Source: an uncultured Lachnospiraceae bacterium (GTDB lineage: Bacteria; Bacillota; Clostridia; Lachnospirales; Lachnospiraceae). From it: DNA of 64,000 nucleotides. The stretch's first letter is position 1. Each line of letters opens with the position of its first letter. Position numbers and translations under genes: made by a program. Shown one piece after another: positions 1-62,855 of the stretch. The notes below the pieces were generated by a model. That model did not search any database, was not told where the DNA came from, and saw only the letters and a list, made by a program, of their open reading frames with translations. The DNA is taken from assembly GCA_905233905.1 (NCBI GenBank), contig CAJOFN010000001.1:266-64265 (forward strand), read 5' to 3'.

Positions 1-1007
1 AACTCCCTGAATTCCAGCCCTATATCATCCTTAAATTCAAGCGCCCCTAAAACCACCTTGTCATTTACCATAAAACGCACTCTTCCGTTTGGAATAATGA
101 CCTCATTTTCACGGATAACGGCGGATATGATAAGCTCCGGCGGCAGGGAAATATCACGTATGCTTTTGCCGCTCCAGGGGTGGTCGTCCTCCAGGGTAAG
201 CATCACAAAGGTCATATCGCTTCCGCCGGACATCTGGGAAAAATTACGCATATTGGTGAACTGCTCCACAAAGCCCGCGGAAATGATACCCGTAGGTATG
301 GCCACAAGCCCCACTCCCAAAAATGATATGATTATCGCCATTATCTGTCCCATGGTGGTAATGGGATATATGTCTCCGTAGCCCACAGTCAGAAGCGCCG
401 ATACCGACCACCATATCCCGGAGAATGCGTTCCTGAAAACCTCCGGCTGGGCTTCATGCTCCAATGAATACATGCATATGGAGGATGCCGTCATCATGAT
501 CAGAATCATACAGATGGATGAAAAAAGCTGCCTGCTCCTGCTGCGCAGGACATCCACCACCACATTGAAGGCATCATACTGGGTATTGATCCGAAACAGC
601 CGAAATACCCTGAAAACCCGAAATGTCCGAAATGCCACAAAGCCTGCCGGTAAAAATACCGGGATAACATATGGAAGTATGGTAAAAAGGTCAATTATCC
701 CGTTAAAGGAAAAAATAAACTTAAAACCCGCCTTTACCTTGCCGCAGCCCGGATAAAGATATTCAGCCGTCCATACCCTTAAGATATATTCAACTATAAA
801 GAAAAGGACTATTATCCTCTCGATATCCTTAAGAAACGGCGTATACGGGGCAGCTGCGTCAAAGGTCTCTATTATGAGGATCAGAAGATTTATGATGATA
901 GCCGATACCAGCACATAGTCGAACAGTCGGCTCGGGATATCATATTTGGTTCCAAGGGAAATTATATCAAATACCCTGCGCTTTTTTGTGCTGATATTAT
1001 CCGTCAT
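1..1007 (-). CDS. voltage-gated K+ channel with C-terminal RCK/TrkA-C-like domain (3' end runs off the window)
   Basis: Absent from the ORF track because it has no stop in the window. My minus-strand translation from ATG at 1007 gives MTDNISTKKRRVFDIISLG... It contains an S4-like arginine ladder FRTFRVFRVFRLFR, the TVGYGD selectivity filter and a TrkA-C-like tail (LTLEDDHPWSGKSIRDISLPPELII). The frame stays open to position 1. Confidence 0.85.
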   Translation of the reverse strand, partial: MTDNISTKKRRVFDIISLGTKYDIPSRLFDYVLVSAIIINLLILIIETFDAAAPYTPFLKDIERIIVLFFIVEYILRVWTAEYLYPGCGKVKAGFKFIFSFNGIIDLFTILPYVIPVFLPAGFVAFRTFRVFRVFRLFRINTQYDAFNVVVDVLRSRSRQLFSSICMILIMMTASSICMYSLEHEAQPEVFRNAFSGIWWSVSALLTVGYGDIYPITTMGQIMAIIISFLGVGLVAIPTGIISAGFVEQFTNMRNFSQMSGGSDMTFVMLTLEDDHPWSGKSIRDISLPPELIISAVIRENEVIIPNGRVRFMVNDKVVLGALEFKDDIGLEFRE

Positions 1008-1015
1008 ATGCCCTG

Positions 1016-2218
1016 TTATTCTTCTGTTTCATCCTCTGATGCTTCGCCGGAGGTTTCTTCCTGCTTTTGCGCGCTTATGGTCTCGCCGCCATCCACATAT
1101 CCGTTGTATATGTCAACATGGTCGTAGATACATCTCCAGGCGCTTCTTGACCAGCCCGTCACACAGATATAATGATGGCCGTCATTTCCCACAAGATAGC
1201 TTGCTGCGCAGTTGCCGGACTCCTTTACGAAGCCTGTCTTGGCGCCGGATATTTCCCCGGGAAGAGGCTTGTCCTCGATCCTCCGCATAAACCAGTTGGA
1301 GATCAATATCCCATCTGGATGCTGCTTGGTGGAGCTGGTGGTATAGGTCCTGGCGTAAAGCACCTTGCGACATTCCTCATACTGTAAGGCTGCCTTCATT
1401 ATGGCCGCCATATCCTCACAGGTACAGTGATGGTTCTCATCATAAAGACCCGTGGCGTTGGTAAAATGAGCCGTGTCCGATATTCCCAGCTCTTCTACCC
1501 TCTCATTCATCAGCTCAACGAAGGCCTCCTGTCCGCCGGCAACATAATCACAAAGCCCAAGGACAGCGTCCGCTCCGGAGGGGAGTATTGTGCCATATAA
1601 CAGATCCTCCACCGTGACCTTTTCCTTTGGATCAAAGCCCACCACTGAACAGTCATGGTCGTAGGTGTACTGGGTTATTTCATCGGTTATCTTATATGTG
1701 TCGCTGTAGTCATCAATATTTTCCACCGCCACCAGCAGGGTCAGTATCTTGGTCATGGAGGCGGGATTAATGACCTCGGAGCCGCTCCGCTCCGCTATCA
1801 CCTCATTGGTATCCACATCCACTAAGAGCGCGTACTGCGAAACAACGCTGCTTCCGCTTCCGTCCTCTAAAAATTCAGGAAGGGTTTGGGTGGAGTCATT
1901 TCTGATGAAAGCATAGCCGGGGGCAAAGCTTGCCACCTCGGGATCGACCGGAGGAAGCTCTTCTATTTCTTCTTCCTCTGCCTCCACGATCTCCTCTATG
2001 GCAGCTTCCTCCAGCTCCTTATCCTTTGTTAATTTGCTGTGTACTGCCCTGATGGCTATAGTGGCAGTCACACCGAAAATTATGATTATTAACAACGCAA
2101 AAAGCGACACCATAAATCTGCCGCTTTTAACAAACCGCCAAAACCGGCGTCTAAAAGAGCGTTTCCTGCGCCGCCTTTTTATTGTACGATTTCTGTTATT
2201 ATATCTGTTATCACTCAT
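1016..2218 (-). CDS. serine-type D-Ala-D-Ala carboxypeptidase (peptidase S11 / PBP5-like), membrane-anchored
   Basis: SxxK motif (ASMTK) and KTG motif (GAKTGF). Basic N-terminus followed by one TM helix. The start is uncertain: the ORF opens at 2272, and the ATG at 2218 would overlap the lysC stop by 8 nt. Confidence 0.8.
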   Translation of the reverse strand: MSDNRYNNRNRTIKRRRRKRSFRRRFWRFVKSGRFMVSLFALLIIIIFGVTATIAIRAVHSKLTKDKELEEAAIEEIVEAEEEEIEELPPVDPEVASFAPGYAFIRNDSTQTLPEFLEDGSGSSVVSQYALLVDVDTNEVIAERSGSEVINPASMTKILTLLVAVENIDDYSDTYKITDEITQYTYDHDCSVVGFDPKEKVTVEDLLYGTILPSGADAVLGLCDYVAGGQEAFVELMNERVEELGISDTAHFTNATGLYDENHHCTCEDMAAIMKAALQYEECRKVLYARTYTTSSTKQHPDGILISNWFMRRIEDKPLPGEISGAKTGFVKESGNCAASYLVGNDGHHYICVTGWSRSAWRCIYDHVDIYNGYVDGGETISAQKQEETSGEASEDETEE

Positions 2219-3416
2219 GGAAGAACTTGTCATGTACAGCCCTGGTGGCAATATCCACATCCTCAAGATCAATAAGAACGGTGATCCTGATCTCGGATGT
2301 AGCGATCATACGGATATTGACTCCCACATCGAAAAGCGCCTCAAACATCTTGGCCGCAACTCCCGCATTGGTCTGCATGCCTGCGCCTACGATGGAAAGC
2401 TTAGCAACATTCTTTTCCTCCTTGACCTCGGCAATGGTAAGGCGCTGCTGGTTCTCCTTTAATACCTTAACAGCCTCCTTTGCCTGCTCCTGATCCACGG
2501 TAAATGAGATATCCTTTGTCTCATCACGTCCTATGGACTGCAGGATAACGTCAACATTGATGCCATGCTTGGCAAGTTCATCAAATATCCTAAACGCCAC
2601 GCCCGGCTCGTTCTTTACACCCAGCACCGCTATCCGGGCAGCATTCTTGTCTACGGCAACACCGCTTACCAGCATTCCTTCCACGTCGCATACCTCCTTT
2701 ACGACAGTCCCTTCTGCCCTGTTCATGCTGGATCTTACTACCAGCGTAACTCTGTATTTCTTGGCAAGACCCACGGAACGGTTGTGCAGAACCTTGGCTC
2801 CGAGAGTCGCCAGCTCCAGCATCTCGTCGTAGGTTATCTCCTTTAGCTTTCTTGCGCCGGGCACTACCCTCGGATCAGCCGTGTACACGCCCTCAACATC
2901 CGTATATATCTCACAGGCATCAGCCCTTAAGGCTGCCGCGAGAGCCACTGCCGTGGTATCAGAGCCGCCGCGTCCGAGTGTCGTAACATCATCCCTGCGG
3001 TTGATCCCCTGAAAGCCTGTAACTATGACTATCCTGCCGGAATCCAGCTCATTGGTGATGCGCTCTGTATCGATCCGCTTAAATCTTGCATCACCGTATC
3101 TGGAGGTGGTGTGCATTGCCACCTGAAAGGCATTTAAGCTGATGGCAGGAACTCCCTTTGCCGCCATTGCCATTGCCATAAGGGCAACGGAAGTCTGCTC
3201 ACCCGTAGCAAGCAGCATGTCCACCTCGCGCTTGGGGGCGTTGGGATTGATCGCCTGGGCTCTGGTGAGAAGGGCGTCTGTAGTCTTGCCCATTGCTGAT
3301 AAGACTACAACTATCTGATGTCCCTTCCTGTAATCCTCTATGCAGCGGTCCGCCACGGCGTCAATGCGCTCGGCGTCGGCTACGGAGGTACCTCCGAATT
3401 TCTTGACTATTAGCAT
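2211..3416 (-). CDS. lysC: aspartate kinase
   Basis: N-terminal MLIVKKFGGTSV kinase signature, 401 aa, C-terminal ACT-like repeats, adjacent to hom. Confidence 0.9.
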   Translation of the reverse strand: MLIVKKFGGTSVADAERIDAVADRCIEDYRKGHQIVVVLSAMGKTTDALLTRAQAINPNAPKREVDMLLATGEQTSVALMAMAMAAKGVPAISLNAFQVAMHTTSRYGDARFKRIDTERITNELDSGRIVIVTGFQGINRRDDVTTLGRGGSDTTAVALAAALRADACEIYTDVEGVYTADPRVVPGARKLKEITYDEMLELATLGAKVLHNRSVGLAKKYRVTLVVRSSMNRAEGTVVKEVCDVEGMLVSGVAVDKNAARIAVLGVKNEPGVAFRIFDELAKHGINVDVILQSIGRDETKDISFTVDQEQAKEAVKVLKENQQRLTIAEVKEEKNVAKLSIVGAGMQTNAGVAAKMFEALFDVGVNIRMIATSEIRITVLIDLEDVDIATRAVHDKFFHE

Positions 3417-3485
3417 TAATTTTACCTATCTAATGAATGTCATCAGGGCTCCTCCCACTTCGTGGGTCCCTCCTCATGACGAAAT

Positions 3486-4688
3486 TTAACCTATTCTTAT
3501 CCTACTTATTATATCACCGTCAGAAAGTCTGCCGCAGGCCTCCTTATAAGCCTTTTCGGTCATGGAAGCCGTAACAACTCCGATCTCACCCGCTATGCCT
3601 AAATCCAATACTGACTCAATCTCAAAACACTCCCTTATCCCGGACTCTGAAAGGGATGTACGGATGAAATTGCGGTAGGACTGCTCATCCGGGTCTGCAA
3701 GGCGGATGGTATCATGGCTCCAGCGAATATCGGAGGCTTTGTCATGCTCCTTTGCCATGCTGACAAGATCCCCGACTACCGCAGATGCCGTAGGAAGACT
3801 GCCTGCCCCGCTCCCGTAGTACATGCTGTCGCCTAACATATTGCCAACAACATATACCGCGTTCATCACACCATGCACCGCGTAAAGAGGATGCTCCTCA
3901 TCTAACAGAAAGGGGGCAACCCTTATTGCGAAAGTGTCCGCCTGCCTCTTGCAGACAGCAAGGAGCTTTACGGCATGGGAAAGCTTTTTGGCGTAGATGA
4001 AATCCTCCGCCGTTATGCCTGTGATACCCTCCACAGGTATGTCCTGATAGTTTACCGTGGCTTCGGCTATAAGGGAAGTAAGTATCGCTATCTTGCGTGT
4101 GGCGTCATGCCCTTCTATGTCTGCGGAAGGATCTGCCTCCGCGTAGCCGTTGGCCTGGGCCTCTTTTAATACCTCATCAAAGCCGCAGCCTTCATTTGCC
4201 ATGTTGGTGAGCATGTAGTTGGTCGTGCCATTGATGATGCCGGTGATCTCGTCTATGCGATCCCCGGTAAGCGCCGTAAGCAGGGTGCGTATTATAGGAA
4301 TACCGCCGCCCACGGAGGCTTCAAACAAGAACTGAACCCCGTTTGCCCTGGCGATCTCCAAAAGCTCGGCTCCCTTGTCTGCCACAAGTGCTTTGTTGGA
4401 GGTGGTAACGTGTTTGCCGTGCTCCAACATCGCCTTTACAAAGGTAAATGCTGGCTCAACGCCTCCCATTGTCTCAACCACCAGATCAACCGAGTCATCC
4501 TCCGCTATCTGATTGTAATCATGTACCACCAGAGGGGCGATGGGATCACCATCAAAATCACGAAGATCAAGAACCTTTGTCAGAGTAAGTCTGCACCCTG
4601 CCCTCTTTTCAATGAGGGCGCTATTGTCAGACAGTATCTTTGCTACTCCTGAGCCTATGGTTCCATACCCCATTATTGCTACGTTCAT
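3486..4688 (-). CDS. hom: homoserine dehydrogenase
   Basis: NAD-binding N-terminus MNVAIMGYGTIGSGV, 400 aa, C-terminal ACT-like region, neighbour of aspartate kinase. Confidence 0.9.
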   Translation of the reverse strand: MNVAIMGYGTIGSGVAKILSDNSALIEKRAGCRLTLTKVLDLRDFDGDPIAPLVVHDYNQIAEDDSVDLVVETMGGVEPAFTFVKAMLEHGKHVTTSNKALVADKGAELLEIARANGVQFLFEASVGGGIPIIRTLLTALTGDRIDEITGIINGTTNYMLTNMANEGCGFDEVLKEAQANGYAEADPSADIEGHDATRKIAILTSLIAEATVNYQDIPVEGITGITAEDFIYAKKLSHAVKLLAVCKRQADTFAIRVAPFLLDEEHPLYAVHGVMNAVYVVGNMLGDSMYYGSGAGSLPTASAVVGDLVSMAKEHDKASDIRWSHDTIRLADPDEQSYRNFIRTSLSESGIRECFEIESVLDLGIAGEIGVVTASMTEKAYKEACGRLSDGDIISRIRIG

Positions 4689-4695
4689 AGTCGGT

Positions 4696-5848
4696 CTATT
4701 CCTCTCTGTCGCTGTCCGAAGTATTGCGTTTTGGACAGCCTAATGACAGCCATTTTAAATAGCTGCCCATGAAATCATCCAATGCTCCGTCCATTACCGC
4801 GTCAACATTACCGGTCTCCTCGCCTGTGCGCAGATCCTTGACCATCTTGTAAGGCTGCATGACATAGGAACGTATCTGATTGCCCCAGCCTATATCAGTG
4901 ACCTCTCCCCTGATGCCGGCTGCCTTGGCCTGCTGCTCCTCCTGCTTTAAGATGAAGAGCTTGGCTTTTAGCATCTGCATGGCCTTGTCCTTGTTCATGT
5001 GCTGTGAACGCTCATTCTGGCACTGAACAACTATCCCGGTGGGGAAATGTGTAATACGAATGGCTGAAGAGGTCTTGTTGATGTGCTGACCGCCGGCACC
5101 GCTGGAACGATAGGTATCAATACGGATATCCTCGTCCCTGACCTCCACGTCAAGATCCTCCTCGATCTCCGGCATGACATCGCATGACGCAAAGGACGTC
5201 TGCCTCTTGCCATTGGCATTAAAGGGGGAAATACGCACAAGCCTGTGGACTCCCATTTCTGACTTGAGATAACCGTAAGCGTTGGTTCCGTTGACCTGAA
5301 CCGTGACTGACTTGATGCCTGCCTCTTCACCCTCTAAATAATCAAGAACCTCGAGAGAGTATTCGTGGCTCTCCGCCCAGCGGGTGTACATGCGGTAAAG
5401 CATGGAAACCCAGTCGCAAGCCTCAGTACCCCCTGCCCCTGAATGAAGGGTGATTATGGCGTTGTTGGCGTCATATTCGCCTGAGAGCAGGGTCTTGATG
5501 CGGATTGCTTCAAAGGTCTTTTCAAACTCTTCAAAGGCTGCCATGGCCTCAGCCACAAGGTCTTCGTCATCCGCCTCAGCCTCATTCCCAAGCTCAATAT
5601 ATGCCTCTACATCCTCATACTGCGTCTCTAAGGAGGCGTAAACAGCCATATCGTCCTTAAGGTCTTTTAATTCTTTGGTCTTTTTGCTGGAAATATCCGG
5701 ATCGTTCCAGAAATCCGGAGCCTCCATCTCTCTTTCTAATTCCTCTATCCTGTTGCTCTTTGCAGCGAGGTTAAAGTGAATCCCTCACTTCCGCAAGCGG
5801 AGCCTGGTATGCGGTAAGATTCTGCCGCAGTTGATCCAATGCTACCAC
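4696..5848 (-). CDS. prfB: peptide chain release factor 2, requires programmed +1 frameshift
   Basis: The ORF-track piece 4696..5727 carries SPF and GGQ (SSGAGGQHINK). A short ORF0 starts at GTG 5848 (or TTG 5839): VVALDQLRQNLTAYQAPLAEVRDSL-stop. Shifting +1 at CTT TAA C joins it to ...NLAAKSNRIEELEREMEAPDFWND. Confidence 0.9.
5770..5790 (-). other. prfB +1 ribosomal frameshift site (SD-like GAGGGA, spacer, CUU UAA C)
   Basis: The minus-strand RNA reads aagugaGGGAuucaCUUUAAC. CTT is at 5776-5774, the in-frame TAA at 5773-5771 and C at 5770. Confidence 0.8.
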
Positions 5849-5895
5849 CTTAATCACTTCCTTTCCATAAAAACAGGTTGACAGGAAATGCCAAC

Positions 5896-5924
5896 ATTAT
5901 CCCACAAATCCTGTGAAAAAGCAA
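5896..5924 (-). promoter_or_regulatory. candidate sigma-A promoter for prfB (TTGCTT-N17-GATAAT with TG extension)
   Basis: -35 at 5919-5924 and -10 at 5896-5901 on the minus strand, about 45 nt upstream of the prfB ORF0 start. Confidence 0.35.
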
Positions 5925-6425
5925 TCAAATCTTGGATATAAGCTCATCACAGATCTCATCAACACTCTTGCCGTCCGTTGTCAGGGTTATATCCGCGGCA
6001 TTTCTATACCTGTCGCTTCTCTGCTCCATAAGCTCTGTGATATGCTCTATGCTCATGTCGCTGTTAAGCAGAGGCCTTGAATCGTCATCCTTTACCCTTT
6101 CATAAATGGTGGAGGGCTCGGCGGACAACAGTACGATCCGCCCTCTTTCCTTCATCAGCCTGACATTTTCGGGTCTGATCACCAGCCCGCCGCCGCAAGA
6201 TACCACCTGATCGTCATTCAGGGAAAGCTCGATAAGGCAGTTGCTCTCTAAATTACGGAAATAAAATTCCCCGTATTTTTCAAAAATATCAGGGATGGAC
6301 ATGCCTCGCCCGTCAGCTATGAGACTGTCCATTTCAACAACCCTGCTTTTCAGCCTCTCTCCAAGAGCCTCTGCCACAGTGGACTTACCCACTCCCATAA
6401 ATCCGATGAGAAAAATATTTTTCAT
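5925..6425 (-). CDS. aroK: shikimate kinase
   Basis: Walker A GFMGVGKST, 166 aa, within the aro gene cluster. Confidence 0.9.
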   Translation of the reverse strand: MKNIFLIGFMGVGKSTVAEALGERLKSRVVEMDSLIADGRGMSIPDIFEKYGEFYFRNLESNCLIELSLNDDQVVSCGGGLVIRPENVRLMKERGRIVLLSAEPSTIYERVKDDDSRPLLNSDMSIEHITELMEQRSDRYRNAADITLTTDGKSVDEICDELISKI

Positions 6426-7207
6426 AAGAACTCCCTGCAGTCGTCTATACTTTCAAGAACATTCCGAAGCTTTATGGCATCTATCTGTCCCGGCGCCGAT
6501 GCCTTCTTTGCCGTGGCAAAGGTGGCAGCTGAGCCGAAGAGCTCACCGCACATACGGCTGATAAGCCCAAGCTTTGACATGGATATGGCTATCACCGGAC
6601 GGTCCCTGTATCTCTCCAGATATTCATTAGCCGCCTCAATGAGAGCAAATACATCCGACATACGCCGGGGCATCACCGCAAGCTTGCAGATATCAACGCC
6701 CATATCACGCATGGCGCAGAGCCTTGATACCATTTCAACCTTGTCCGGGGTAGAGGAAAAATCGTGACTTGATCCTATGATCTTTACATCACAGCGCTGG
6801 ATCTTTCTGATTATCGCCTCACGATCCGGCACTGCTTCAGCCGTAAACAGCTCTATGTCCACAATATCAATCTTGCCTGATGCCGCAAGCTTTAAGTTCA
6901 GATCCATATAGAGGTCACTTTTTACGGTAAGCTCTCCGCCCTCCTTGGAGGTCCTTAAGGTAAAAAGGATTGGCATATTGCCGACAATATCTCCGATTTC
7001 TCCCGCAAGGGCGACCATGCCGTCAGCATTGGTGGCGTCATAAAACCAGTCCGCCCGCCATTCTATGATGTCCGGGGAATAATCTTCCACCGCAAGCCTT
7101 GCTTCGGATAATATCTGATCACGTGTGGTGCCTGTAATGGGTATTATGATCTTTGGGGCACCCTCTCCTATTCTTACGCCGCGTACCTCTACAACCTGGT
7201 TACTCAT
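6422..7207 (-). CDS. aroD: 3-dehydroquinate dehydratase, type I
   Basis: About 260 aa with type I DHQase-like sequence (IIEWRADWF...). Overlaps aroK by 4 nt and aroE by 8 nt. Confidence 0.85.
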   Translation of the reverse strand: MSNQVVEVRGVRIGEGAPKIIIPITGTTRDQILSEARLAVEDYSPDIIEWRADWFYDATNADGMVALAGEIGDIVGNMPILFTLRTSKEGGELTVKSDLYMDLNLKLAASGKIDIVDIELFTAEAVPDREAIIRKIQRCDVKIIGSSHDFSSTPDKVEMVSRLCAMRDMGVDICKLAVMPRRMSDVFALIEAANEYLERYRDRPVIAISMSKLGLISRMCGELFGSAATFATAKKASAPGQIDAIKLRNVLESIDDCREFL

Positions 7208-8075
7208 TGCTTATACCTAAAACTTCTTTCATGTGCTCAATGGGCATGTCGCAGCCTGTCCACTGCTTAAAGCCTGCCGCGCCCTGGAATAATATCATAC
7301 CCATGCCGTTCATGGTCTTACAGCCCACACTCTTAGCCATTTCAAGAAATCTTGTCTGGGGCGGGGAATAAATGGTATCAGCTACGATCAGCTCCGGCCG
7401 CAGATACGACTCATCAGGAAGCCAGGTCAGCCCTTCAAGAGGCTTCATCCCCATGCCTGTGGCATTAACAAGGATATAGCTTTCTTCGATCTCCCTTCGC
7501 AGTACATCCCTGTCATCGAAGTCATAAATATTTGCCTTGCAGTCAGTCTTCTCATTTATCTTCCTGACTGTCTCCTCGCCGGATTCAAAGAATTTGTCCC
7601 TTATATTGAATATGGATATCTCCTTAACCCCGTCAAGGGCGGCCTGTATCGCTATTGCTGTGGCTGCGCCGCCGCAGCCGCCTATGGTCATCTTTTTGCC
7701 GATAACATCAAAGCCGTTATCCTTTAAGGACATCATAAAGCCTGTACCGTCCGTGATGTCACCGGTCAAGACTCCGTTGTCATTGGTTATGGTATTTACC
7801 GCCCCCACAAGCTCGGCTCTTGGTGTTAATTTGTCAAGATACTTCACAACCGCGTTCTTATTGGGCATGGAAATATTGGCACCCTTAAAGCCCATTGCGC
7901 GCATACCCTTTATGGCATCCTCCAGGGCGTCGCTGTCAACGTCAAATGCCAGGTAGGCGTAGTCAAGCCCAAGATGTGCAAAGGCTTCATTGTGCATTGC
8001 CGGCGAGCTGGAATGTCTTATTGGATAAGCGAACAGCCCGATCAGTTCTGTATGTCCTGTTATTCTTTCTGCCAT
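7200..8075 (-). CDS. aroE: shikimate dehydrogenase
   Basis: N-terminal LIGLFAYPIRHSSSPAMHNEAF and a GGCGGAATAIA Rossmann motif. Confidence 0.9.
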   Translation of the reverse strand: MAERITGHTELIGLFAYPIRHSSSPAMHNEAFAHLGLDYAYLAFDVDSDALEDAIKGMRAMGFKGANISMPNKNAVVKYLDKLTPRAELVGAVNTITNDNGVLTGDITDGTGFMMSLKDNGFDVIGKKMTIGGCGGAATAIAIQAALDGVKEISIFNIRDKFFESGEETVRKINEKTDCKANIYDFDDRDVLRREIEESYILVNATGMGMKPLEGLTWLPDESYLRPELIVADTIYSPPQTRFLEMAKSVGCKTMNGMGMILFQGAAGFKQWTGCDMPIEHMKEVLGISNE

Positions 8076-8095
8076 TTTCCCTCCTGTAATAGCTG

Positions 8096-8109
8096 TTCAG
8101 TCGACTGAA
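8096..8109. promoter_or_regulatory. perfect 14-bp palindrome TTCAGTCGACTGAA in the aroE leader (candidate operator)
   Basis: Read directly from the sequence. It lies 21-34 nt upstream of the aroE ATG, between a weak -10 candidate and the RBS. Confidence 0.3.
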
Positions 8110-8195
8110 TAGTTACCTGTTACTGTGCTTGAATTTTAATGAGACATATGCTTTACTTGTAACGGTAGCAAACAAACACATCCAAAGGAGTAACC

Positions 8196-36488: not shown

Positions 36489-37181
36489 CTAAACCTTAAA
36501 TCTGTAGCCGACACCCCATACCGTTTCTATGAACTGGGGTTTGCCGGGATTTGCCTCGATCTTTTCTCTTATCTTTTTGATATGGACTGCCACGGTAGCT
36601 ATATCTCCAACGCCGCTGTCCCATACCTTGCCAAATAATTCCTCTTTGGAAAAAACCTGGTTGGGATGCTCCATCAGAAACAGCAGCAGCTCGTATTCCT
36701 TGGTAGTAAGCATCTTTTCCGTGTCATCCACCCATACACGGTGCATTGCCAGATTGACCCTTAAATTCCTGACTAAAAGCTCATCCGCTCCTTCATCCTG
36801 TGGGATGGTGCTTACAAGCCTCTGGTATCTGGCAAAATGCGCCTTGACCCTTGCCACCAGCTCACCCGGTGAAAAGGGCTTGGTGATGTAGTCATCGGCT
36901 CCGATGCCCAATGCCCGTATCTTGTCTATGTCCTCCTTGCGCGCTGATACCATAAGGATGGGGGCATTGCTTATCTTGCGAAGCTCTCCGCAAAGCTCAA
37001 TACCGTCCATTCCCGGAACCATGATGTCAAGGATGTACATATCAAAATCATGGAGCTTTCCAAGCTCAAGGGCGTCTTTGCCGTTTTTCACTGTGGTAAC
37101 TTCAAAATCAGACAGCTCCAGATAGTCCCTTTCCAACTCTGCGATTGCTTCTTCGTCTTCTACGATCAGTATCCTGCTCAC
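36489..37181 (-). CDS. OmpR-family response regulator
   Basis: REC domain (ILIVEDEE...[14 protein letters not shown]) plus a winged-helix C-terminus ([11 protein letters not shown]). GTG start preceded by AGGAGG. Confidence 0.9.
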
Positions 37182-38280
37182 TCTTTTCCTCCTGCGGCAC
37201 CAGCTTTTTCATGGTAAATGAAACCGTAGTGCCTTCTCCCGGGGGCGAAAGCACCTTGACCGTGCCGTCATGATCTTCTATTATCTTCTTTACTATTGAA
37301 AGTCCTATCCCGCTGCCCCCCGCGGATGTCCTTGAGGCATCTCCCCTGTAGAGGCGCTCAAAAACATGAGGCAGATCCTTCGGATCTATGCCAATTCCGT
37401 TGTCCTTGATCTCAATATGTATGATGCCGCCCTCTGACCAGACTCCAAGTGCAATGGCAAGGTCATCCTTGCCCGCGTATTTGATGGAATTATCCACACA
37501 GTTACGGAACACCCTTCCTATCCGGATCTTGTCCGCAACAAAGAAAGCGTCCTCCTCCACATAGTTGTAGTAGACAAATCTGGCATTCTGATTGTCAAGA
37601 TCAAGCTTAAGCTCCCTGGCAAGCTCTGAGAAATACTCACGAACGTTGAGCCTGCTGAAGCTGTAAGGGATGCGGTTGGTCTCAAGGTTGGAATATGCTG
37701 TAAGCTCATCTAAAAGCGCATCCATCTCATTTGCCTTGTTCAGTATGGTCGTCACATAGGAAAGCTGCTTCTCGGGAGTCTTTGCCACTCCGTCAATGAT
37801 CCCCTCAGAATAGCCCCTTATGGCTGTAAGGGGGGTCTTTAAGTCATGGGCAATATTGGATACAAGCTGCCTCTGGTTGCGCTCCGCTTCAAGCCTGGCT
37901 ACAGCGTCCTCCTTAAGCCGGATACGCATCTGCTCGAAGGAATAACCAAGCTCTGAGATCTCATCATTGCCCTTTATCTCCATTGAAAAATCAAGCTCTC
38001 CCTCACGGATCTTCTCCGCTCCGGCAACAAGCATTGAAACCTTGCGGACTATCCCATGATAGGTCCACATGATAAGAAGGGCCGCCAGCGCCATCATTAT
38101 CATTATACCCGACACAAAAATATCCGTGATGCGTTCCCTTACTATTGCCGGAGAAGCACCTTCCGGTATATTGACACCACCGCCCAGCGGGATAATGTCG
38201 AATAAAAGACCGCCATACAGCAGCAGCGGCACAATGATTATGATCATAAAGGATATGACCATTCTGTAACGAAGCTTCAT
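37108..38280 (-). CDS. sensor histidine kinase (2 TM, short external loop, HAMP-HisKA-HATPase)
   Basis: H-box SNIAHDLKTPLT and the N/G boxes DNSIKY, DNGIGI, GSGIGL. The 3' end overlaps the response-regulator gene by 74 nt. Confidence 0.85.
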   Translation of the reverse strand: MKLRYRMVISFMIIIIVPLLLYGGLLFDIIPLGGGVNIPEGASPAIVRERITDIFVSGIMIMMALAALLIMWTYHGIVRKVSMLVAGAEKIREGELDFSMEIKGNDEISELGYSFEQMRIRLKEDAVARLEAERNQRQLVSNIAHDLKTPLTAIRGYSEGIIDGVAKTPEKQLSYVTTILNKANEMDALLDELTAYSNLETNRIPYSFSRLNVREYFSELARELKLDLDNQNARFVYYNYVEEDAFFVADKIRIGRVFRNCVDNSIKYAGKDDLAIALGVWSEGGIIHIEIKDNGIGIDPKDLPHVFERLYRGDASRTSAGGSGIGLSIVKKIIEDHDGTVKVLSPPGEGTTVSFTMKKLVPQEEKSEQDTDRRRRRSNRRVGKGLSGAV

Positions 38281-38318: not shown

Positions 38319-38347
38319 ATTATACTTTAAATCAGAAAACTATTCAA
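38319..38347 (-). promoter_or_regulatory. sigma-A promoter TTGAAT-N17-TATAAT for the two-component system
   Basis: -35 at 38342-38347 and -10 at 38319-38324 on the minus strand, about 40 nt upstream of the kinase ATG. Confidence 0.5.
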
Positions 38348-38349
38348 TG

Positions 38350-38433
38350 TTAATAAGCAAGGATGGTAAGGACCGCTGTAACAGTCCCTAAAAACAAGGC
38401 TATACAGCCCATTACAAATGATAAATGCTGCAT
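38350..38433 (-). CDS. 27-aa hydrophobic peptide (MQHLSFVMGCIALFLGTVTAVLTILAY)
   Basis: Below the ORF-track cutoff. Strong RBS GAAGGAG-N5-ATG. A single TM-like helix. Last ORF of the Tad-like operon. Confidence 0.4.
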   Translation of the reverse strand: MQHLSFVMGCIALFLGTVTAVLTILAY

Positions 38434-38444
38434 ATGCGCTCCTT

Positions 38445-38594
38445 CTATCCGATAATCTGTGACATAGCCTCTGATAAGGCCTCGGAAAACAATGACGAGC
38501 TGCCAAGGAACAGACAGGCAAAAATCCCTGCAACTGAAATAGCGGAGGCTGCTGCCAGAAACGCCCCTCCGTACTCACGCAAAATATCCTTCAT
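38445..38594 (-). CDS. 49-aa leaderless Flp-like peptide (MKDILREYGGAFLAAASAISVAGIFACLFLG...)
   Basis: Below the ORF-track cutoff. RBS GGGAG-N7-ATG, and the ATG overlaps the upstream stop (ATGA). The N-terminus is paralogous to the 65-aa ORF at 41582..41779. Confidence 0.55.
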   Translation of the reverse strand: MKDILREYGGAFLAAASAISVAGIFACLFLGSSSLFSEALSEAMSQIIG

Positions 38595-38683
38595 ACCAGA
38601 GCTCCCGTCATTATCGCTGCCATGGACAAGGCAAAAGCAAGCTGAATGACCGCAATCCCCAGATCCTCACATATCTCCTTCAT
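38591..38683 (-). CDS. 30-aa leaderless Flp-like peptide (MKEICEDLGIAVIQLAFALSMAAIMTGALV)
   Basis: Below the ORF-track cutoff. Same M-[KQ]-[DE]-I-x-x-[ED]-[YL]-G register as the other two peptides. Overlaps the end of the 114-aa ORF by 17 nt. Confidence 0.4.
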   Translation of the reverse strand: MKEICEDLGIAVIQLAFALSMAAIMTGALV

Positions 38684-39011
38684 TATCCTTCTCGTCCTCC
38701 TGTTCTAAATGAATTTTATCTGTAAAGCGTCCGCTGTTTTCAAAGCCAAACAGTGGCATGCTGTATTTATATGTCAAAACAGCCTCACCCTCAGGATCGA
38801 CAGAAAGCTCAAAGCCTTCCTCTATCGCCCTGTCGCTGTATTCCTCTATCATGTCACCGCTTCCCTCGTTTGCTTCTATCTCATAAAGGGCATCCTCAAA
38901 GAAGCGATCAGCCTGCCTGACCCTGCAGGACGCAGCTATTATCCCCACACCGGCAAAGCTTATGATCGCAAGAAAATACATGCCGATATAGCCCTTGATC
39001 ACAGTATCCAT
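38667..39011 (-). CDS. 114-aa N-terminally anchored protein (possible minor pilin / accessory subunit)
   Basis: One N-terminal TM helix (GMYFLAIISFAGVGIIAA) followed by an acidic soluble domain. Sits inside the Tad-like operon. I recognise no family. Confidence 0.45.
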   Translation of the reverse strand: MDTVIKGYIGMYFLAIISFAGVGIIAASCRVRQADRFFEDALYEIEANEGSGDMIEEYSDRAIEEGFELSVDPEGEAVLTYKYSMPLFGFENSGRFTDKIHLEQEDEKDNEGDM

Positions 39012-41581: not shown

Positions 41582-41779
41582 TTAAGGATTAGTCCCTATT
41601 GCTACAAGCCCTGCATTGGTCTGTACTTCGTCAATAAAACCGTCAAGGAGTGCCCTCATGCTCTCCCCAACGTAGCCGCCATCATTGCCCTTGAACAAGA
41701 GTCCTATGATGGTAGCAAGCGACAGTATGGCGATCACTGTAATGAGCGCCGGACCATATTCTTTTATAATATCCTGCAT
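41582..41779 (-). CDS. 65-aa leaderless Flp-like peptide (MQDIIKEYGPALITVIAILSLATIIGLLF...)
   Basis: Strong RBS GAAAGGAG. The EYG motif followed by a hydrophobic helix resembles mature Flp pilins. An in-frame TAA lies 18 nt upstream of the ATG, so no leader is possible. Confidence 0.6.
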   Translation of the reverse strand: MQDIIKEYGPALITVIAILSLATIIGLLFKGNDGGYVGESMRALLDGFIDEVQTNAGLVAIGTNP

Positions 41780-61469: not shown

Positions 61470-61514
61470 GGTAGCCGGGTTCAAAATTATAAATATATTT
61501 ATGGAGGAAAGATT

Positions 61515-62855
61515 ATGAACTATGAAAAAGAATATCAGCAGAAGCTGGTATCCGCAGACGAAGCTGTAAAATGTGTCAAATCCGGCGACTGGGTTGACTA
61601 CGGCTGGTGCGCAGGCACCCCTGAGGCTTTGGATAAGGCTCTCGCGGGCCGTACAGACGAGCTTCAGGATGTAAAGATCCGCGGTGGAATCCTTTTCCAC
61701 ACCCCCGCCATTTTTGACAGGGAGGACGCAGGCGAGCATTTCTGCTGGAACTCCTGGCATATGAGCGGAGTAGAGCGCAAGCTTATAAACCGCGGTCTGT
61801 CATATTACGCGCCCTTGAAATATTCCGAGCTTCCCAAATATTACCGCAAATACATTGAGCATCCCAATGTTGCAATGTTCCAGGTTGCTCCTATGGATGC
61901 CCACGGATATTTCAACTTCGGTCCCAGCGCTTCCCATATGATGGCTGTCTGTGAAACCGCCGACAAGATCATCGTAGAGGTGAACAAGAACATGCCCCGA
62001 TGCCTCGGAGGTTTTGAAGCCGATATCCATATCAGTCAGGTTGACATGATAGTTGAGGGCGACAACCCTGCCATCGGCGAGCTTCCCGCGGGGGGCGCTC
62101 CCACAGAGGTAGATAAGAAGGTAGCAGAGTTAGTTGTTTCAGAGATCCCCAACGGCGCATGCCTGCAGCTTGGCATAGGCTCCATGCCCAACACCATCGG
62201 CCAGATGATAGCCGAATCCGATCTCAAGGATCTTGGCGTTCATACCGAGATGTACGTGGACGCCTTTGTTGACATCGCCAACGCAGGCAAGATCACCGGC
62301 GCCAAAAAGAGCATAGATCGTTTCAGACAGGCCTTCGCCTTCGGTGCCGGCACAAAGAAGCTTTACGACTATGTCAATGACAATCCTGCCATAATGAGCG
62401 CGCCTGTTGATTATACCAACGACGCAAGGGTTATCGGACAGATAGACAATTTCGTCTCCATCAACAACGCGGTGGATGTGGATCTTTACGGACAGATCTC
62501 CGCAGAGTCCTCAGGAATACGCCAGATCTCCGGAGCCGGCGGACAGATGGACTTTGTGCTTGGCGCATATCTGTCAGATGGCGGCAAAAGCTTTATCTGT
62601 CTCTCTTCCACCTTTACCGACAAGCAGGGGGTTGCGCACAGCCGGATAAGACCTACTCTTGTCGAAGGCTCTGCCGTTACCGATACCAGACCCCAGACAA
62701 TGTACCTGGTTACGGAGTACGGTATGATCAATCTCAAGGGTATGTCCGCATGGGAGAGGGCAGAAGCCATTATCTCAATAGCGCATCCCGATTTCAGGGA
62801 CGACCTGATAAAGGAAGCCGAAAAGATGAACATCTGGAGAAGATCGAACAGATAA
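61515..62855 (+). CDS. but: butyryl-CoA:acetate CoA-transferase (acetyl-CoA hydrolase/transferase family)
   Basis: Start at [31 protein letters not shown], preceded by GGAGGAAAG. The sequence closely resembles the Roseburia/E. rectale But enzymes as I recall them, including the C-terminal [27 protein letters not shown]. Confidence 0.85.

Follow-up and report, generated by a model that had tools for sequence, protein, structure and literature searches.

The 64,000-nucleotide stretch of DNA analysed here in full (the window) carries a compact minus-strand operon in which a gene for a 65-amino-acid (aa) peptide is followed by genes for an ATPase, a 445-aa polytopic protein, and a 114-aa bitopic protein, then by three small open reading frames (ORFs), and after these by a kinase and a response regulator. 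The genes and features of this region are as follows:

41582–41779, minus strand: 65-aa protein of family A, candidate major subunit, which begins M-Q-D-I-I-K-E-Y-G and continues into a hydrophobic helix
40378–41547, minus strand: 389-aa ATPase of the T2SSE superfamily (TadA/VirB11/FlaI-like), assigned by Pfam PF00437
39019–40356, minus strand: 445-aa polytopic protein, probable platform of a very divergent GspF/PilC/TadB-C type, assigned from the Pfam signal of its family and a structural model
38667–39011, minus strand: 114-aa bitopic protein of family X, with an N-terminal membrane helix and a small outer domain, defined by its phmmer homologues
38591–38683, minus strand: ORF1, a pilin-like peptide of 30 aa and the shortest of 43 family B members
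38445–38594, minus strand: ORF2, a pilin-like peptide of 49 aa, in family C (36 members)
38350–38433, minus strand: ORF3, 27 aa, probable 5' stub left by truncation of a family E gene and keeping its ribosome-binding site, start codon, and membrane anchor
38347–38319, minus strand: promoter-like site TTGAAT-17-TATAAT, sigma-70-like, agreeing with the consensus at 10 of 12 positions
38327–38578, minus strand: 83-aa ORF of the program-made ORF track
38425–38649, plus strand: 74-aa ORF of the same track

An earlier note on this DNA had described three coupled minus-strand micro-ORFs that were invisible to the ORF track, and all three are present in the sequence at these coordinates with the overlaps and ribosome-binding sites it listed. 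ORF1 starts 17 nt inside the 3' end of the 114-aa ORF and has GGAGG 12 nt upstream, its stop codon overlaps the ATG of ORF2 as ATGA, and GGGAG lies 7 nt 5' of ORF2. ORF3 starts 11 nt past ORF2, with GAAGGAG 5 nt before its ATG, and each of the three begins at the first start codon past an in-frame stop. The promoter-like site is placed 3' of the ORF3 stop and 5' of the kinase. The described invisibility is a matter of falling below a length cut-off only, since ORF1 and ORF2 are predicted by standard gene callers, and their exact proteins occur, without names, on 13 contigs in public predicted-protein collections; the exact ORF3 sequence is absent from these collections. At its C-terminus (38667–38702, minus strand) the 114-aa protein carries an acidic tail, E-Q-E-D-E-K-D-N-E-G-D-M, that is missing in its homologues; this tail runs across the ribosome-binding site and start of ORF1, which accounts for the 17-nt overlap, and the same junction between families X and B in a relative of the same genus (G003) is a 4-nt ATGA overlap.

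A query with the platform protein retrieved the operon from four species of the same genus (54–58% identity) and from two other genera, and a profile search with it gave 52 related loci, all in Lachnospiraceae and mostly from rumen and gut metagenome-assembled genomes (MAGs). Carriers that are cultured or bear a name include Lachnospira multipara ATCC 19207, L. pectinoschiza M83, Roseburia zhanii BX1005, [Lactobacillus] rogosae, and Lachnospiraceae bacterium C10, as well as Candidatus Weimeria, which is known from MAGs; among the 301 Lachnospiraceae genera sampled, 41 contained the platform family. One relative (P0006) had 81% identity, and a metagenome scan for closer relatives returned a single locus at 42% identity. 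The operon opens with A, followed by the T2SSE-type ATPase, the probable GspF/PilC-type platform, and then X, B, C, (D), and E, with its small proteins distributed across the loci as follows:

Family A: 54–79 aa, 42 of 53 loci, before the ATPase
Family X: about 110–128 aa, about 35 of 53 loci, after the platform
Family B: 30–36 aa, 43 of 53 loci, after X
Family C: 41–50 aa, 36 of 53 loci, after B
Family D: 146–215 aa (about 170 aa), 28 of 53 loci, after C
Family E: about 195–235 aa (about 210 aa), 30 of 53 loci, last gene

Past the platform, X-B-C-D-E was the commonest arrangement (16 loci), and X-B-C-E was found in three loci. Median intergenic gaps were 10–15 nt, and the D and E genes usually overlapped by 4 nt. 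The accessory genes varied even within the genus: the order was X-B-D-E in G003 and X-C-D-B in G001, and the contig of G002 ended past X-C. We had also read one locus, in G004, as having lost its pilin genes, a reading that was dropped when a family A homologue was found on another contig of that genome. Directly 3' of the operon, both in the window (36489–38280) and in G003 (locus L016, 7897–9150 onward), lie a histidine kinase and a response regulator, which may regulate the operon or may be merely syntenic with it; the kinase in the window has a promoter-like site of its own. Some relatives have a last operon gene that is fused to, or stands before, a gene for a large secreted or surface protein, of which there is none in the window; examples from loci L033 (7483–10248), L020 (5070–7886), and L057 and L061 (7356–8366) are a 921-aa fusion with E, a 938-aa protein, and a 336-aa protein with a Listeria-Bacteroides (Flg_new) repeat.

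Searching the 2065 plus-strand ORFs of these loci by phmmer with ORF1 or ORF2, without a motif filter, returned their positional counterparts as top matches. Alignments of families B and C are gap-free at the N-terminus and their lengths are tightly conserved, with Shine–Dalgarno (SD)-like sites before 42 of the 43 genes in family B, 33 of the 36 in family C, and all 42 in family A. The comparison of synonymous with non-synonymous change that the earlier note had put forward came out on the side of coding, as synonymous change dominates in close pairs: dN/dS was 0.061 (dS 0.39) and 0.067 (dS 0.50) in family B, with dN = 0 at dS 0.09, and 0.18 (dS 0.43) and 0.43 (dS 0.11) in family C, with dN = 0 at dS 0.11, all from close pairs only, distant pairs being saturated and uninformative. 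Families B and C are under purifying selection in close pairs. The two ORFs of the track, dismissed as implausible in the earlier note, do exist in the sequence, and no conserved equivalent of either occurs at the corresponding position in 53 related loci; in the same orthologous loci the frames of ORF1 and ORF2 are conserved and the overlapping track frames are not. Among 1.84 billion representative proteins, the family C profile matched 367 clusters at E ≤ 0.001, mostly of 44–50 aa, and of the best 150 of these 367 clusters, 136 align from their own residue 1; a word-indexed homology search with ORF2 recovered only ORF2 itself. Judged by this conservation, ORF1 and ORF2 are genuine conserved genes, two that common ORF-length filters miss here. 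The proposal that all three ORFs encode real small membrane proteins held for these two, which are conserved and tightly packed, and was not supported for ORF3, which has no short counterpart in relatives. Of the stoichiometric coupling that the earlier note expected, the analysis covers the packing of the genes.

Families A to D have a common start, M-x-x-(I/V)-(I/L)-x-(E/D)-(Y/F)-G at Met1 followed by one hydrophobic helix, and in families B and C the motif reads M-x-x-I-I-x-E-Y-G from Met1. The claim that ORF1 and ORF2 are paralogues of the 65-aa protein at the head of the operon was borne out: hhalign gave probabilities of 96.1% for B with A, 98.0% for C with A, 97.6% for B with C, and 96.9% for D with A, values inflated by the picking of the B, C, and D sets partly by motif pattern, and phmmer, independently of that pattern, matched ORF2 to the 65-aa protein at E = 9e-5. 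This paralogy is confined to the first 27–30 residues. Control comparisons of X and of E with A gave about 1%, so the signal among A to D is not simply that of any membrane helix. Family X was itself tried as a fifth paralogue and rejected, as hhalign placed it in register but at 1–4% probability. None of the small proteins matched a Pfam or NCBIfam model, those of pilins included, and the Flp models PF04964 and PF16982 had no match at E ≤ 1 to ORF1, ORF2, the 65-aa protein, or 34 family C members. When families A to D were compared by hhalign with 29 canonical Flp1_like pilins from the same bacterial family, the probability stayed below 14%, which gives no support to homology with Flp. In one genome (G051:C2:60182-60286), a weak, sub-threshold Flp1_like match (E = 5e-4, model positions 11–46) lies just upstream of a divergent platform gene at 61485–62768, and it is the only sequence-level hint tying family A to Flp pilins.

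The larger genes of the operon include a T2SSE/PilB/TadA-type assembly ATPase, which matches Pfam PF00437 at E = 1e-17 (64.4 bits, cut-off 24.9) and for which the NCBIfam VirB11 and TadA-family matches fell under their cut-offs. For the 445-aa protein and its homologues, the leading Pfam family is PF00482 (T2SSF), matched by 9 of 48 members (best E = 1.8e-6); the window's own protein has no T2SSF match at E ≤ 1 and no Pfam match, and a sequence search of the PDB with the platform profile gave no match. In its AlphaFold (AF2) model (pLDDT 83.8), residues 73–196 superpose on the cytoplasmic domain of EpsF (2vma_A; Z 9.0, rmsd 3.0, 115 aligned residues) and on the N-domain of PilC (2whn_B; Z 8.7), scores that are middling for helical proteins. 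The Foldseek match of highest probability (0.94; rank 9 by E-value) was the PilC chain of the type IVa pilus machine model 3jc8, with which 228 residues of the platform align. Together, the Pfam signal of the family and these middling fold matches point to a very divergent platform, and the 445-aa protein is probably such a protein of the GspF/PilC/TadB-C type. Homologues of the 114-aa protein, found by phmmer, are 110–128 aa long and lie directly 3' of the platform gene in about 35 loci.

The closest parallel to this operon among known systems is the Tad/Flp (type IVc) machinery, as in Aggregatibacter (Flp1-TadA-TadB/C-TadE/F), and in the monoderms Bifidobacterium breve and Micrococcus luteus. 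The two have in common a TadA/VirB11-like ATPase, E-Y-G at the start of the hydrophobic helix, and a compact monoderm operon without a secretin, and probably also a GspF-family platform, a very short major subunit, and minor subunits that resemble it only in the N-terminal helix. Unlike Tad/Flp, the operon here has no leader before the motif, no prepilin peptidase or TadZ, one fused 445-aa putative platform in place of TadB and TadC, no Flp Pfam match, and subunits down to 30 aa. The genome itself also carries a canonical Tad-type locus on another contig (C26, about 180–8150; L067, L068, L080), with two A24 peptidases (168 and 151 aa), a CpaE-like gene, a CpaF ATPase (404 aa), TadB, TadC, and a 61-aa Flp1_like pilin (PF16982) whose leader ends in Gly, so the operon here is a second, distinct system. 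Canonical Tad loci of this kind were present in 33 of 36 sampled Lachnospiraceae members. The canonical locus resembles the operon in having the same host, an ATPase, platform proteins, and a pilin of about 60 aa, but differs from it in its two A24 peptidases and CpaE-like gene and in a pilin with a leader of 10–50 residues ending in Gly, followed by I-G-V-V-E with Glu5.

A second parallel lies with the minor pilins and pseudopilins (PilX, GspH-K, ComGD-GG, TadE/F), which are likewise low-copy paralogues encoded 3' of the machine genes and sharing the N-helix of the major subunit; a weak similarity to the model of family E is seen with PilX, S. sanguinis PilB, and GspK. Known minor pilins have class III signal peptides and globular domains, whereas a globular part is all but absent from families B and C. 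Public sources and the protein atlas name relatives of family A only as "hypothetical protein", and a literature search for leaderless Flp-like pilins or for this Lachnospiraceae system found no description, the one remark being that of Denise et al. that Clostridia hold many Tad systems (PMC6668835). We infer that the operon represents a so far undescribed variant of the machinery for type IV filaments.

A short major subunit and paralogues sharing its N-helix, encoded beside an ATPase and a platform, form the layout of a type IV filament. We suggest, with a probability of about 0.7, that ORF1 and ORF2 belong with the rest of the operon to a type IV filament-like machine with leaderless subunits, and that ORF3 is a stub of family E; filament formation, the roles of the subunits, independence from a peptidase, and this origin of ORF3 are what we infer here. 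In such a machine, the peptides would insert in the membrane via their single helix, and the ATPase–platform motor would extract them and polymerise them via the common N-terminal module, as happens with type IV pilins. Family A would be the major subunit, and B, C, and D would be low-abundance subunits for priming or capping. With no leader before the motif, no prepilin-peptidase step would be needed.

ORF1 and ORF2 may also be real and yet serve as membrane-resident small accessory subunits of the ATPase–platform complex rather than as parts of a filament. Family B, at 30–36 aa, has little beyond one membrane helix and is shorter than any described pilin that we know of, and the tight packing of the operon fits the subunits of a complex equally well. 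By analogy only, the N-terminal module that B and C have in common with the longer A and D, next to remainders that diverge, is typical of sets of major and minor pilins and speaks for a filament instead. We regard an accessory role as possible, though on the unlikely side.

The leaderless nature of the subunits bears on a different alternative, in which Met1 to Gly9 would be a short leader cut in trans by an A24 peptidase from the canonical Tad locus, and the peptides would be ordinary, if odd, prepilins. The class III signal peptide of pilins consists of a hydrophilic leader of 6–51 residues ending in Gly, then about 21 hydrophobic residues with Glu5 (PMC6916266). The subunits here do not have this structure: the motif stands at Met1, Glu is at position 7 from Met1, no upstream in-frame start codon is available to the ORFs of the window, and an alternative upstream in-frame start is lacking in 26 of 42 homologues of family A, 32 of 43 of B, 27 of 36 of C, and 19 of 28 of D. 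Gly9 is nearly invariant (A 42/42, B 41/43, C 33/36, D 26/28) and in this resembles a peptidase cleavage site. Neither the operon nor any of the 52 related loci, as read, encodes an A24 prepilin peptidase. Such peptidases do occur elsewhere, with two on the genome's own contig C26 and at least one in each of 10 other carriers checked, never adjoining the operon where both share one contig, and the MSH system (PMC6668835) and the Tad system of B. breve (PMC6916266) are known cases of a peptidase encoded at a distance. Against a leader, conservation in these proteins is highest over the nine residues, which are acidic and hydrophobic and neither basic nor hydrophilic; the leader as defined is hydrophilic (PMC6916266). 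A cut past Gly9 would also leave family A with Pro (22 of 42) or Lys (15 of 42) at +1 and no Glu5. In its order, E-Y-G is closer to the motif of mature Flp pilins than to a leader. Processing in trans therefore seems unlikely to us, and leaderless subunits are clearly favoured on these sequence features.

ORF3 had been taken in the earlier note for an independent peptide of a single hydrophobic helix, and here our reading departs from it. Against family HMMs built without the window, ORF3 scored 4.9 bits with family E, its residues 1–24 falling on model positions 1–24, a match of 24 hydrophobic residues that only 1 of 1000 composition-preserving shuffles equalled. An HMM of the family E N-terminus alone gave 6.7 bits, equalled by 36 of 1000 shuffles. 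Families A, B, C, D, and X gave no signal (28–86% of shuffles scored as well), and the candidate reading of ORF3 as a degenerate paralogue of the motif families A to D was rejected on this ground. The position of ORF3 fits the X-B-C-E architecture of three other loci, and in the nearest relative with an E gene (G003, locus L016), E closes the operon and the orthologous kinase and regulator pair follows. Full-length family E proteins (about 200–235 aa) comprise an anchor, a long helix, a beta-sheet, and a B-repeat-like domain; ORF3 corresponds to residues 1–24 only, with a stop at codon 28 and just 69 nt from there to the kinase start. The family E model (pLDDT 91) has a helix at residues 2–52, an antiparallel sheet, and a C-terminal domain like the InlB B-repeat (Z 7.0). 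Its resemblance to minor pilins is weak and not exclusive to them (PilX, Z 6.8; S. sanguinis PilB, Z 6.0; GspK, Z 5.9): VIA-align comparisons with pilins were middling and mixed with unrelated alpha/beta folds, and Foldseek on family E returned no pilin.

These comparisons suggest that ORF3 is most likely a 5' truncation stub of a family E gene, E having presumably lost its outer domains here with the ribosome-binding site, start codon, and membrane anchor remaining; DNA alignment of the region with the nearest relatives, which are too divergent, showed no deletion junction. A functional 27-aa membrane micro-protein would account for the strong SD sequence GAAGGAG 5 nt before the ATG, the unbroken hydrophobic helix, and the start 11 nt after ORF2. 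An SD and start codon are, however, also what a 5' stub would be expected to keep, and since they would be inherited from E, they are not evidence of function. No ORF of similar length was found at this position in the 52 related loci, the public protein sets do not contain it, and the one specific match it has is with residues 1–24 of a family of about 210 aa, all of which makes a micro-protein in its own right quite improbable. As a stub, ORF3 would show that a truncated gene can mimic a neat micro-ORF with a perfect ribosome-binding site.

Short ORFs by themselves prove nothing, since 107 ORFs of at least 20 aa occur in these 7 kb, and ORF1 and ORF2 stand above chance because they are conserved across loci. 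The region has no Rfam family and no unusual RNA fold (fold z-score −1.65). A weak terminator-like hairpin (5-bp stem) and a T-run lie inside ORF3 (38397–38410, minus strand) and are not above shuffle expectation; with this weak hairpin, that z-score, and the lack of an Rfam match, an intrinsic terminator or structured RNA over ORF3 was rejected. That ORF1 and ORF2 are chance ORFs in 3' untranslated or intergenic DNA, as the sheer abundance of short ORFs might suggest, is hardly credible given the conservation of frame, length, position, motif, and SD across 36–43 loci, the low dN/dS of close pairs, the 367 public clusters, and a region without an Rfam family or unusual RNA structure.

To return to the filament-like machine, the fullest form of that reading, a type IV-like filament built from peptidase-independent subunits with family B cut to a bare N-terminal assembly helix, is tentative, and we place it somewhat short of even odds. 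To our knowledge, all described type IV filaments, whether pili, pseudopili of type II secretion systems, competence pili, or archaella, have subunits whose leader is cut by a dedicated peptidase. If the reading is correct, family B, at 30–36 aa, would hold the smallest pilins known and would be an exception to the rule of leader-bearing precursors, as would the system at large, which is widespread in the gut and rumen and whose leaderless subunits would measure 30–65 aa. It would in addition define a minimal assembly module, and may provide abundant commensals with an organelle for adhesion or secretion.
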